This document shows positions 33,656 through 41,757 of a DNA stretch of 64,000 bases, piece by piece; position 1 is the stretch's first letter, and every line of letters starts with the position of its first letter. Position numbers and translations under genes: made by a program. The stretch is taken from positions 33,812 to 97,811 of the forward strand of contig CAYSAY010000002.1 of assembly GCA_964429215.1 (NCBI GenBank), read 5' to 3'. Source of the DNA: an uncultured Gammaproteobacteria bacterium (GTDB lineage Bacteria > Patescibacteriota > Microgenomatia > UBA8517). Under the pieces are notes generated by a model, which worked only from the letters and a program-made list of their open reading frames with translations, had not been told where the DNA came from and made no database searches.

Positions 33656-33734
33656 ATTATAATTTATCTTAATTATATCAAAAGTTCGAAAATAATTATT
33701 AAAATTGAATAATTGATATATTTAGATATACTTT

Positions 33735-34079
33735 TTGTGCCTAATTTGTAATGCGGGATCGACGAGACTCGAACTCAGGTCTATAGCTTGTACTCGAAAT
33801 ATATTAAAACGTGTTCAAGTAAAGTATGGTGATGGTAAATCGTCAAATAGTCAGGGTGCTATCGTTGTAAAATTAGATTATGAGAATAGGAGAAAAGATA
33901 ATTTCACCTATAAATCTTCCGAAGTAGATTTACTTGTTGTTTACATACCAAAAATAGATAAACTTTGTAGTTTTCCACTTGAAATATTTGAAGGTAAACG
34001 TAAATTAACTATTCGAATTGAGAAACCAAAAATAAATCTTGTAAAGGGTATTATTTTTGCAAAAGATTATTATTGGTAG
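33735..34079 (+). CDS. hypothetical protein (start uncertain; overlaps repeat copy 3)
   Basis: 114 aa ORF; the DLLVVYIPKIDK segment is faintly nuclease-like. Low confidence. Confidence 0.3.
   Translation: MCLICNAGSTRLELRSIACTRNILKRVQVKYGDGKSSNSQGAIVVKLDYENRRKDNFTYKSSEVDLLVVYIPKIDKLCSFPLEIFEGKRKLTIRIEKPKINLVKGIIFAKDYYW
33741..33776. repeat. copy 3 of 16-mer CTAATTTGTAATGCGG fused to an inverted 24-nt copy of the tRNA-Asp 3' end (T-arm + acceptor)
   Basis: 33753-33776 is the exact reverse complement of 34363-34386 (gagttcgagtctcgtcgatcccgc). Confidence 0.55.
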
Positions 34080-34125
34080 CGATTATTTGCTTTTTAATGT
34101 AAAATTGCATTGTAAAACTTTAGGT

Positions 34126-34387
34126 GGGGTCGTAGCTCAATTGGTTAGAGCGCTTCCCTGTCGATTTGTGGCAGCTCTTTCTAGCAATATTAAGATGTTA
34201 AATCAGGCTAATTCGGGGAAACCTTTAAAATGGTAATCCCGAGCTAAATCACCGATTAAATCGGTGTAAATGTGTAGAGACTATATACCTGACAACCCTA
34301 GTGGTTGATGAGATAGTCCAAGCTTTAAGGAAACTTAAAGATCGTTGCACGGAAGAGGTTGCGAGTTCGAGTCTCGTCGATCCCGCC
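34126..34387 (+). tRNA. tRNA-Asp (GUC) interrupted by a ~186 nt group I intron (34162-34347) in the anticodon loop
   Basis: Exons: GGGGUCG UA GCUC AAUUGGUUA GAGC G CUUCC CUGU | CAC GGAAG AGGUU GCGAG UUCGAGU CUCGU CGAUCCC G CC. The intron follows U and ends in G. Inside are AAUUCGGGGAAACCU and GUGUAGAGACUAUA, like the J3/4-P4 and P7 elements of small IC3 tRNA introns. A candidate IGS GUGG can pair with exon CUGU. Confidence 0.7.
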
Positions 34388-34406
34388 TAGAGTTTTACAA
34401 TTAAAT

Positions 34407-39072: not shown

Positions 39073-40458
39073 ATGCAAACACAAACGCCATTAACAATAA
39101 AAGAGACACAGGACGGATTAAAATCTAAAAAATTTAGTGCAGTGGAACTTGTTGATGCATATTTGGCACAAATTAATAAATATAATAGTGATTACAACGT
39201 TTTTTTGACAGTTACTGAGGAAGAGGCTTATAAAAAAGCAAAGGAGTTAGATAAGGTTGGTTTATATGCTTCCCCGTTGTCAGGAGTTGTCACTTCATAC
39301 AAAGATATATTTTTGACTAAAGGGGTAAGGACCACTGCAGCGTCTAAAATTTTGGATAGCTATATTCCACAGTACTCTGCAACGAGTGTTAAAAAAATCG
39401 ATGAGGCAGGTGGAATTATGATAGGAAAATTAAATTGTGATGCATTTGCACATGGTTCAAGTGGTGAAAATTCTGATTATGGTCCTACTTTAAATCCTTG
39501 GAATAAAGAGTACATTCCAGGTGGATCTTCATCTGGATCAGGAGCAGTCTTGTCTGCGAATATGAGTTTGATTTCAACTGGTACAGATACATGTGGATCA
39601 ATTAGGTTGCCTGCTAATTATGGTTACTCAGTTGCACTTAAACCAACATATGGAGCTGTGTCCCGATACGGTGTTATTGCAATGGCTTCTTCACTTGATA
39701 CTGTTGGTTCGTTAGGAAGATGTGTAGAAGATGTAGAAACAGTATTTAACGTTATTAAAGGTACTGACAATCTTGACGGTAATGTTACTGATCATAAAGC
39801 GACGTTCATTGATCACAAGTTTCGTATTGGAATTCCAAAAGAATTCTTTGTAGGTGGACTTGATAAGGAAATTGACAAAAATATTCAAGAAGCAATAAAT
39901 ATCTATAAAAAAGAGAATGTAGAATTCGTTGAGGTATCCTTGCCATCGACAAAATATGGAATATCTGTCTATTACATAATCCAACCCGCAGAAGTATCAA
40001 GTAACTTGGGAAGATTTGATGGAATTCGATATGGAAATGATAGAAATAGTTTTGGTGAAGAAGCAAAGAGAAGGATAATGCTTGGTAGCTACGTGCTTTC
40101 GGCAGGATATTATGATGCGTATTATGAAAAGGCAATGAAGGTTAGAACTATAATTAAAAATGAAGTTGATGAGGTGTTTACAAGGGTTGATGCCTTGATT
40201 GCACCAGTTGCACCAACACCTCCGTTTAAAATTGGTGAGAAGTCTGATGATCCGCTTGCAATGTATTTAACTGATATCTATGCAGCTACAGCTAATCTTT
40301 GCGGAATACCGTCAATTGCAATTCCTTCTGGTTTTAGTAACAAAAAGTTGCCTTTAGGCTTTCAATTAATGGGACCAAGGTTTGGTGAGGATACACTTTT
40401 TAAGTTAGGGAAAATATACGAAATGTCGACAAATTACAAACCGAAGGTGGCAATCTAA
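39073..40458 (+). CDS. gatA: Glu-tRNA(Gln) amidotransferase subunit A
   Basis: Amidase signature GGSSSGSGA, 461 aa, gatCAB order. Confidence 0.85.
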   Translation: MQTQTPLTIKETQDGLKSKKFSAVELVDAYLAQINKYNSDYNVFLTVTEEEAYKKAKELDKVGLYASPLSGVVTSYKDIFLTKGVRTTAASKILDSYIPQYSATSVKKIDEAGGIMIGKLNCDAFAHGSSGENSDYGPTLNPWNKEYIPGGSSSGSGAVLSANMSLISTGTDTCGSIRLPANYGYSVALKPTYGAVSRYGVIAMASSLDTVGSLGRCVEDVETVFNVIKGTDNLDGNVTDHKATFIDHKFRIGIPKEFFVGGLDKEIDKNIQEAINIYKKENVEFVEVSLPSTKYGISVYYIIQPAEVSSNLGRFDGIRYGNDRNSFGEEAKRRIMLGSYVLSAGYYDAYYEKAMKVRTIIKNEVDEVFTRVDALIAPVAPTPPFKIGEKSDDPLAMYLTDIYAATANLCGIPSIAIPSGFSNKKLPLGFQLMGPRFGEDTLFKLGKIYEMSTNYKPKVAI

Positions 40459-40473
40459 GAATTTATAAATTAT

Positions 40474-41757
40474 ATGAAATATATAACAATTATTGGGCTT
40501 GAAATACATATAGAACCAAATACAAAATCTAAAATGTTTTGTAGTTGTTCTCAAAACCATTTTGGAGCTAAGCCAAATAGCCAAACTTGTCCAATTTGTT
40601 TAGGTCTCCCTGGTGCGCTTCCGATTGCAAACAAAGAAGCGATTAGAAAAGTTATTCAACTTGGTTTAGCGTTAGGATCTACTATTAGTGATAAAAGTAA
40701 TTTTTACAGAAAGCATTATTTTTACCCTGATTTAGCAAAAAGTTTCCAAACAAGTCAAAAGGATAATCCTTATTGTATCGGTGGTGAGTTAATGGGTAAG
40801 CAAATTAATCATATTCACCTGGAAGAGGATGCAGGTAAATTAATTCATGACACTTTAAATGGAGAAAAAGTGTCGCTAGTCGATTTTAATCGTTGTGGCT
40901 GTGCATTAATTGAAATGGTTACAGAACCAGTATTCCACAGTGTTTTAGAGGTTATAAGCTTTACGAAGGAACTTCAGTTAATTGCAAAGTACTTGGATAT
41001 TAGTAATGCTGATATGGAAAAAGGAACAATGAGACTGGAGGCAAATATATCACTTTCAAAAGATGGTTCACTACCTGATTACAAAGTTGAACTTAAAAAT
41101 ATTAATAGTTTTAAGTTTTTGGAGAAAGCACTAAATGCTGAAATTGAAAGACAAACTATTGCACTTGATAGTGGTGAAAAATTAGTACAGGAGACTAGAG
41201 GTTATGATGAAAATACAAAGAAAACTTTTTCTCAAAGAGTGAAGGCAGATTCTAACGATTATCGATATTTTCCAGAAGCAGATCTTCCCCCTGTAGATAG
41301 TACAGAGTACAAAGTACTGAGTACACAGATAGAACTTCCACAACAAAAGAGAGAAAGGTTTGAGAATGAATATAAACTTTCAAAAGATTATATAGAAATA
41401 TTAGTTTCAGATATATCTAGGGCAAATTATTTTGAGAGTGCAGTAAAACTTGCTCCTGACTTAACAAAGTCAGTTGTAGATTTAATGATTAACAAGCAAC
41501 TTGATAAAGAATATCCTGAACCAGCAGGACTTGTTAAAAAAATAAGGGAAATAACAAATGTTGTTTATGCGACAGCGACAGAAGTTGAAGAATCCATTGA
41601 AAAAGTATTGTCAGAAAATCCTGATGTTGTTACATCTTACAAAAATGGTAAAGGTCAAGTTGTGGGATTTTTGATAGGGCAAGTACAGAAAAAATTACAA
41701 GGTAAAGGTAACACTAAATTAATTACTGAAAAAATTATTCAACAAATAAATGCCTAG
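40474..41757 (+). CDS. gatB: Asp-tRNA(Asn)/Glu-tRNA(Gln) amidotransferase subunit B
   Basis: N-terminal IGLEIHIE...FCSC and overall GatB pattern. Confidence 0.85.
   Translation: MKYITIIGLEIHIEPNTKSKMFCSCSQNHFGAKPNSQTCPICLGLPGALPIANKEAIRKVIQLGLALGSTISDKSNFYRKHYFYPDLAKSFQTSQKDNPYCIGGELMGKQINHIHLEEDAGKLIHDTLNGEKVSLVDFNRCGCALIEMVTEPVFHSVLEVISFTKELQLIAKYLDISNADMEKGTMRLEANISLSKDGSLPDYKVELKNINSFKFLEKALNAEIERQTIALDSGEKLVQETRGYDENTKKTFSQRVKADSNDYRYFPEADLPPVDSTEYKVLSTQIELPQQKRERFENEYKLSKDYIEILVSDISRANYFESAVKLAPDLTKSVVDLMINKQLDKEYPEPAGLVKKIREITNVVYATATEVEESIEKVLSENPDVVTSYKNGKGQVVGFLIGQVQKKLQGKGNTKLITEKIIQQINA

Follow-up and report, generated by a model that had tools for sequence, protein, structure and literature searches.

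The 64,000-nucleotide stretch of contig CAYSAY010000002.1 analyzed here (the window) almost certainly holds, at positions 34126-34387 of its forward strand, a Microgenomatia tRNA-Asp(GUC) gene that is interrupted between U35 and C36 by a compact, self-splicing group I intron without an open reading frame (ORF). Sequence, boundaries, structure, covariation, and homology form the basis of this interpretation, while catalysis by the window allele is suggested by a close homolog tested in vitro, which has a 73% identical intron and identical exons. A sequence-only reading had proposed a tRNA-Asp(GUC) gene whose anticodon loop is interrupted by a small group I intron, and our analysis supports that core proposal, including its exact boundaries. 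The interrupted gene comprises:

34126..34161, forward strand: tRNA-Asp 5' exon, 36 nt; acceptor 5' strand, D arm, anticodon-stem 5' strand, and loop bases C32, U33, G34, and U35
34162..34347, forward strand: group I intron, 186 nt, without an ORF, between anticodon positions 35 and 36, ending in G34347
34347, forward strand: omega-G, the terminal intron base
34348..34387, forward strand: tRNA-Asp 3' exon; C36, A37, and C38, anticodon-stem 3' strand, variable loop, T arm, acceptor 3' strand, G73, C74, and C75

The last base of the 5' exon, U35, is also U(-1) of the intron (U34161), and the 186-nt insertion in the anticodon loop described earlier, following a U and ending in G, lies exactly there. 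Excision of 34162-34347 joins GGGGTCGTAGCTCAATTGGTTAGAGCGCTTCCCTGT to CACGGAAG...CGATCCCGCC, and ARAGORN recognizes the resulting 76-nt sequence as tRNA-Asp(gtc) with a regular cloverleaf, in agreement with the earlier claim that removing the intron restores a canonical tRNA-Asp with G73. The tRNA-Asp identity set of E. coli consists of the GUC anticodon, G73, C38, and G10; all of these are present (G73 at 34385, C38 at 34350, G10 at 34135). The gene encodes C74 and C75 but not A76, since position 34388 is a T, and A76 has to be supplied post-transcriptionally. Eight junctions are compatible with an anticodon loop of 7 nt; of these, only 35/36 (U35|C36) combined U(-1) with an omega-G, and a boundary that would yield a non-Asp anticodon was not borne out. 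Default ARAGORN reported no tRNA at 34126-34387 of the unspliced window; with introns allowed, it called a "tRNA-Stop(tta)" at the site, which we rejected as spurious. The precursor had no blastn match in the phage collection. A scan for promoters and terminators was uninformative, with seven sites versus 4.2 expected, and its sole "terminator" was the P1 hairpin.

The intron is identified by the Rfam group I model: RF00028 matches 34146-34340 on the forward strand over its full length with 88.5 bits (gathering score 50; E 2.9e-21), which is the only match in the 64-kb window and is far beyond chance. The Rfam comparison that had been proposed as a check on the intron thus came out in its favor. 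Likewise, the two elements said to resemble J3/4-P4 and P7 of tRNA introns, AAUUCGGGGAAACC (34210-34223, J3/4-P4) and GUGUAGAGACUAUA (34272-34285, J6/7-P7), both align to the RF00028 consensus. Against covariance model R1, which was built in this analysis, the intron scores 212.8 bits, the highest of all sequences. A helix model running from P1 to P9 was derived from the window sequence and eight close relatives, and all of its pairs are standard ones in the window:

34158-62 with 34170-74, forward strand: P1, 5 bp; exon CUGU and intron C+1 pair with the guide GGCAG, with wobble U34161.G34171
34176-79 (UCUU) with 34192-95 (AAGA), forward strand: P2, with conserved AG(C/U)AAU in its loop
34203-07 with 34288-92, forward strand: P3, around the P4-P6 domain and the 5' strand of P7
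34213-18 with 34237-42, forward strand: P4, with J4/5 and J5/4 adenines
34221-23 with 34232-34, forward strand: P5, within the P4-P5 element 34213..34242
34243-44 with 34272-73, forward strand: P6
34250-56 with 34260-66, forward strand: P6a hairpin, with a symmetric UAAAU/UAAAU internal loop in the P6-P6a element
34279-84 (GACUAU) with 34313-18 (AUAGUC), forward strand: P7, the guanosine-binding helix, forming a pseudoknot with P3
34293-97 (CAACC) with 34303-07 (GGUUG), forward strand: P8 hairpin
34320-21 (AA) with 34345-46 (UU), forward strand: P9.0, weak
34323-29 with 34334-40, forward strand: P9 hairpin, with a GAAA tetraloop

The sequence-only reading erred in its choice of internal guide sequence. 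It had paired exon CUGU with GUGG (34168-34171), which would require three wobble pairs, whereas CUGU pairs with GCAG at 34171-34174. We assign the guide to GGCAG (34170-34174) because both the intron +1 pair and the U.G register are conserved or covarying among relatives. The U.G at the splice site is kept in 102/102 distinct relatives, and in a model-independent count, intron position +1 is complementary to the nucleotide on the 5' side of the wobble G in 41/42 Asp introns and in 72/73 Asn introns. This +1 pair covaries as C-G, A-U, and G-C (113/115 introns).

Covariation supports most of the remaining helices. In the alignment of eight sequences, 96.3% of cells pair, compared with 37-46% when partners are slid, and 22 pairs have changed on both sides, mostly in P2, P3, P6a, and P9; all four P2 pairs covary in the close subgroup. 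A covariance model made from close relatives then yielded 103 full-length matches in 100 sources, or 102 distinct sequences. In this wide set, 89.0% of cells pair (35-44% slid), compensatory changes occur at 42 of 52 pairs, and the covariation score is 0.49, against 0.15 for shuffled and 0.06-0.10 for slid partners. Compensatory changes affect all five pairs of P3 (95.7% paired), seven of nine in P4-P5, 7/7 in P6a, 5/5 in P8, and 7/7 in P9.

Several observations weigh against this interpretation of the structure and its function. The wide alignment was fitted to the helix model, which biases its pair counts towards that model, and even there P2 (72% paired) and P9.0 (58% paired) are weak. P7 shows no compensatory changes in the wide set and is thus without covariation support: it is sequence-invariant in the eight close relatives, and five of its six pairs are kept in 86-94 of the 102 sequences, as is expected for a guanosine-binding helix. 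A possible 3-bp P10 (GUG 34168-70 with the 3' exon CAC 34348-50) is weak and not conserved; because 28 of the 42 Asp introns lack it, we dropped it as support for the 3' splice site. Finally, the window covers 64 kb of a contig of roughly 242 kb, and a second, uninterrupted tRNA-Asp outside it would make splicing dispensable.

If the intron splices as we propose, the guide GGCAG would pair in the precursor with exon CUGU and intron C+1 to form P1, presenting U34161.G34171 at the 5' splice site, while the P3-P8 and P4-P6 domains together with the P7 pseudoknot would make up the catalytic core. As is established for group I introns in general, P7 would bind an exogenous guanosine, which would cleave after U34161; omega-G34347 would then occupy the guanosine site, and the freed 5' exon would attack after G34347. 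Ligation of GU to C would restore the GUC anticodon and a standard cloverleaf.

Much of this behavior is documented for a close relative. Nakagawa et al. (mSystems 2026, PMC13011429) analyzed 95 complete Patescibacteria genomes and described group I introns at 35/36 in 15 tRNA-Asn(GUU) and 3 tRNA-Asp(GUC) genes, noting that standard tools miss or miscall such genes. The tRNA-Asp precursor of GCA_001029755.1 (CP011214.1, Candidatus Woesebacteria GW2011_GWF1_31_35; our locus L076) self-splices precisely in vitro, with its 35/36 junction sequenced, and an omega-G-to-C mutation blocks exon ligation (PMC13011429). Its exons are 100% identical to those of the window, and its intron occupies the same 35/36 site, uses the same GGCAG guide, has the same core, and likewise lacks an ORF. 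The P4-P5 block is identical over 45 nt and J6/7-P7 over 24 nt. The two introns differ in length (196 versus 186 nt in the window) and, by compensatory changes, in P2, P6a, P8, and P9.

This homolog also helps in weighing two alternatives. ARAGORN and tFind annotate such genes as Ala(UGC) with a 33/34 intron (PMC13011429), and in the window the junctions k=1 and k=2 do produce the loop CUUGCAC, so that the gene could be read as tRNA-Ala(UGC) joined two bases upstream. Those junctions, however, offer C/G or U/U in place of U(-1)/omega-G, whereas conserved P1 sets the U.G wobble at U35 in all 102 sequences, and the tRNA body is of the Asp type, with G73 and C38. Moreover, the best BLAST match of the identical-exon gene is an uninterrupted tRNA-Asp (95%), and its sequenced spliced product was joined at 35/36 (PMC13011429), which leaves the tRNA-Ala alternative effectively refuted already and with a negligible probability. 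Alternatively, the intron could be defunct and the tRNA-Asp gene around it a pseudogene, if another part of the genome holds an intact copy. The adjacent endonuclease gene described below has decayed, our view is confined to the 64-kb window, which is part of the genome, and interrupted and uninterrupted copies of one tRNA do occur together in a few bacterial genomes, though rarely (PMC13011429). Nevertheless, all core helices are intact with standard pairs throughout, the window intron outscores all other sequences against the family model, and the identical exons of GCA_001029755.1 belong to the sole tRNA-Asp copy of that genome (PMC13011429). We therefore consider decay of the intron very improbable, and prefer a functional, self-splicing intron.

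The window intron itself does not appear in the tables of PMC13011429 and is a further member of the published Patescibacteria 35/36 class rather than a listed one. The finding is thus correct but not new: closely related Patescibacteria are already known to contain exactly this arrangement, and its splicing has been demonstrated there. The earlier emphasis on tRNA-Asp as a noteworthy host is outdated, since known tRNA/site classes had risen from 4 to 21 by 2020 (Williams, bioRxiv 2020, 10.1101/2020.01.27.920355; tFind) and tRNA-Asp introns at 35/36 were published in 2026. Among the members in PMC13011429, intron identity to the window ranges from 86% in GCA_030583725.1 (Microgenomatia; intron of 184 nt, exons differing by 1 nt) through 73% in GCA_001029755.1 to 50% in a Paceibacteria example, and a single covariance model recovered all three. 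Closest among the matches listed is locus L049, from a Microgenomates metagenome-assembled genome (MAG; JBAQKY010000026.1), with an 88.8% identical intron and identical exons.

Our scan of species-representative genomes returned at least 118 loci, almost all from Patescibacteria, so the 35/36 intron is common in the phylum. Host tRNAs were typed by explicit cloverleaf scoring, which replaced both a rule requiring the junction G|CAC and a perfect stem (it resolved only 32 of 122 loci) and brute-force ARAGORN typing, which was ambiguous. At least 41 tRNA-Asp carriers besides the window (introns of 183-246 nt), almost all in genomes titled as Patescibacteria groups, and at least 73 tRNA-Asn carriers were found, compared with 3 and 15 in the 95 complete genomes of PMC13011429. 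This adds scale to a practical point that was also made in PMC13011429: where ARAGORN misses or miscalls the gene, a genome seems to lack tRNA-Asp, and its tRNA-based completeness comes out too low. Two viral loci (L120 and L122) lacked a tRNA-like 5' context and were set aside as probable chance pattern matches. Three loci (L007, L040, and L111) each contain two full-length intron-model matches within a few kilobases, indicating two intron-bearing tRNA genes close together.

The window's nearest loci among the matches listed come from Microgenomates (L049) and Woesebacteria (L076) MAGs, and together with a neighboring PolX gene that L049 shares, the bacterial housekeeping genes around the tRNA, and a GC content of 32.6%, they point to a Microgenomatia (Patescibacteria) host. 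Seven intron-bearing loci (L006, L014, L044, L054, L058, L071, and L072) come from MAGs titled Gammaproteobacteria or Pseudomonadales, yet have 35-41% GC, and the tRNA-Asp exons in loci with these titles are 85-95% identical to the window's; the titles look unreliable.

Patescibacteria tRNA-Asn(GUU) introns share with the window intron the 35/36 site, the CUGU/GCAG P1, and the J8/7-P7' block GAUGAGAUAGUCC, and the best non-seed model matches (137-166 bits) were all tRNA-Asn loci (L053, L085, L047, L043, L003, L032, L048, and L036). The CUGU half-loop read by the guide is common to the Asn and Asp genes, and these matches suggest that one compact intron lineage resides in both and has moved between them. 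Several of the published Asn introns, labelled IA1, exceed the window intron in length and have, after P7, an additional P7.1/P7.2-like hairpin region that the window intron lacks, and four Patescibacteria tRNA-Asn introns encode HNH endonucleases (PMC13011429).

Assignment to a subgroup depends on which features are given weight. The classical bacterial tRNA introns (Azoarcus tRNA-Ile, Anabaena/Nostoc tRNA-Leu(UAA), cyanobacterial tRNA-fMet, and Agrobacterium tRNA-Arg) all belong to IC3 and resemble the window intron in being small, ORF-less, located in the anticodon loop, and spliced by the same mechanism, with similar J3/4-P4 (AAUUCGGGGAA) and J6/7-P7 (GUAGAGACU) elements. They insert at 33/34, 34/35, or 36/37, whereas the window intron lies at 35/36, and after P8 the IC3-labelled introns read GAAGAGAAAGUCCAGACCACAA where the window reads GAUGAGAUAGUCCAAG. 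J8/7-P7' and the segment that follows it match the IA1-labelled Asn introns and not the IC3-labelled ones. Subgroup IA in the Michel-Westhof classification is defined by extra P7.1/P7.2 pairings between P7 and P3'. The window intron has no such pairings, since J7/3 consists of only 3 nt (AUA, 34285-34287), and it also lacks P5abc, an architecture that fits IC3-like minimalism. The "IC3-like" label given by the sequence-only reading therefore holds for the compact architecture; as a class assignment it conflicts with the published survey, in which model scores and a tree place Patescibacteria tRNA-Asp and tRNA-Asn introns in the IA clade and none in IC (PMC13011429).

Directly upstream of the tRNA lies what appears to be the decayed part of a larger cassette, here listed with the corresponding intact units in related loci:

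33735..34079, forward strand: remnant of a PD-(D/E)XK (PF11645) homing-endonuclease gene, 114 codons, 5'-truncated, ending 46 nt before the tRNA
33753..33776, reverse strand: inverted copy of the tRNA-Asp 3' end (GAGTTCGAGTCTCGTCGATCCCGC), perfect over 24 nt (E 1.5e-8), near the left edge of the unit
L125, 2933-3718: intact endonuclease and intron-bearing tRNA-Asp
L126, 3001-3732: intact endonuclease and intron-bearing tRNA-Asp
L127, 1931-2712: intact endonuclease and intron-bearing tRNA-Asp
L130, 2001-2717: intact endonuclease and intron-bearing tRNA-Asp
L131, 1931-2722: intact endonuclease and intron-bearing tRNA-Asp

The remnant ORF matches PF11645 with E 1.8e-12 over only profile positions 40-135 of 138, the C-terminal two thirds, and so does not contain a full-length domain with an intact N-terminal half. 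Its homologs are 136 amino acids long and 80-89% identical over the shared part; relative to intact ones, the native start, the block FELGYIPSRPLYDSRYDL, and some 42 codons at the N-terminal end are missing from the window copy, which is probably inactive. NCBIfam has no model for this endonuclease, though in one source the homologs go by "group I intron-associated PD-(D/E)XK endonuclease". I-Ssp6803I, a member of the family, is encoded inside a tRNA-fMet intron. The window ORF matches the structure of I-Ssp6803I-type endonucleases (PF11645; PDB 2OST) weakly and keeps the QVK motif; unlike that type, it is truncated and encoded outside the intron, upstream of the tRNA. In relatives, an intact gene occurs 36-52 nt upstream of a tRNA-Asp with a 35/36 intron at seven places, encoding five distinct proteins, and four of the five intact units have tRNA-Asp exons identical to the window's. 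Roughly 200 nt more of the gene have been lost in L049 than in the window, such that intact (sister genomes), truncated (window), and nearly deleted (L049) states can all be found. No tblastn match to the endonuclease ORF occurred in the 122 fetched loci, including the 8-kb locus around the GCA_001029755.1 tRNA-Asp, and none of the 41 species-representative tRNA-Asp loci encodes it. The survey in PMC13011429 looked for endonuclease genes within introns alone, and a gene located upstream would have escaped it.

The partner of the inverted 24-nt repeat is 34363-34386 on the forward strand, so that the pair brackets the endonuclease remnant and the tRNA, and the inverted tRNA fragment supplies the first codons of the remnant ORF. 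L049, L125, L127, and L131 have diverged copies of this fragment at the same place, in the last three 44-46 nt before the endonuclease start; none was found in L126 or L130. An Rfam search around the fragment (E<=10) gave nothing relevant to an intron or tRNA remnant on the minus strand, and no other Asp locus among the matches listed shows its tRNA 3' end a second time when up to three mismatches are allowed. The fragment may be a site of recombination, may pair at the RNA level, or may simply be a relic. Comparison of window positions 33669-34390, which contain the unit of about 650 bp, with L049, L126, L127, L130, and L131 shows that the unit is inverted in all five relative to the flanking LysM/tRNA-Gly and PolX genes, whereas in L125 it is collinear. 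Its right edge is exactly the tRNA 3' end, and the genes between unit and flanks vary from genome to genome. Simple recombination between the 24-nt repeats does not fully explain the inversion, since the L049 block reaches 84 nt past the left repeat.

These arrangements raise the possibility, which we hold only tentatively, that endonuclease and intron form a two-part mobile unit in which the free-standing PD-(D/E)XK enzyme would cut intron-less tRNA-Asp at the insertion site. Such collaborative homing, in which a free-standing endonuclease gene lies beside an ORF-less intron, is documented in phages (PMC3984707). Repair of the cut would copy the endonuclease gene and intron together, with the window unit representing a decay phase. 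Five distinct, intact 136-aa genes at seven places next to intron-bearing tRNA-Asp genes are consistent with this scenario, as are the coexistence of intact, truncated, and nearly deleted genes, the occurrence of the unit in both orientations between the same flanking genes, and the name that one source gives to the homologs. PF11645 is also the family encoded inside cyanobacterial tRNA-fMet introns (PMC13011429). On the other hand, the window copy is probably inactive without its ~42 N-terminal residues, and 0 of 41 species-representative tRNA-Asp loci encode the endonuclease. Furthermore, endonuclease divergence parallels that of PolX: amino acid identities for the endonuclease and PolX are 89/78, 85/74, and 67/57%, higher for the endonuclease yet in the same order. 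This points to vertical descent under purifying selection and lends no support to a recent horizontal spread of the endonuclease. Vertical inheritance is probable for the intron too, and the neighboring endonuclease gene, broken in this genome, might once have mobilized it.

It is doubtful, though conceivable, that the ~650-bp cassette of inverted 24-nt tRNA 3' end, endonuclease, and intron-bearing tRNA-Asp, which occurs in either orientation in sister Microgenomatia, is a collaborative homing unit. If it were, collaborative homing, so far documented only in phages, would extend to a cellular genome and an essential tRNA gene, and the inverted tRNA end would permit the cassette to flip with its tRNA preserved, or would be a trace of such flips. 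The published inference of little mobility, drawn from the lack of internal endonuclease genes, would then need qualifying, and an endonuclease that targets intron-less tRNA-Asp would explain both the arrival and the persistence of ORF-less introns in reduced genomes. Within this arrangement, only for the endonuclease cassette and its inversion did we find no earlier description, and these may be new.

The most distant endonuclease homolog (46% identity; L132, 917-1405) ends 1 nt before an uninterrupted tRNA-Pro(CGG) that sits in an array of six tRNA genes, so that members of this endonuclease family may be linked to tRNA genes other than tRNA-Asp as well. In two IMG/VR contigs of 194 kb and 88 kb classed as viral (L119 and L121), a tRNA-Asp with a 228-nt intron at 35/36 (L119 1366-1668 and L121 8019-8321, both reverse strand) lies in a dense tRNA array that also includes an uninterrupted 88-nt tRNA-Asp(gtc) by ARAGORN. 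An HNH endonuclease ORF (L121 7034-8059, reverse strand) abuts the array, neighboring ORFs are mostly orphans, and a phage origin of these contigs is plausible. In the window, the genes neighboring the tRNA-Asp are bacterial housekeeping genes, including PolX and, 5 kb downstream, those for the amidotransferase subunits GatA and GatB (39073-41757, forward strand).

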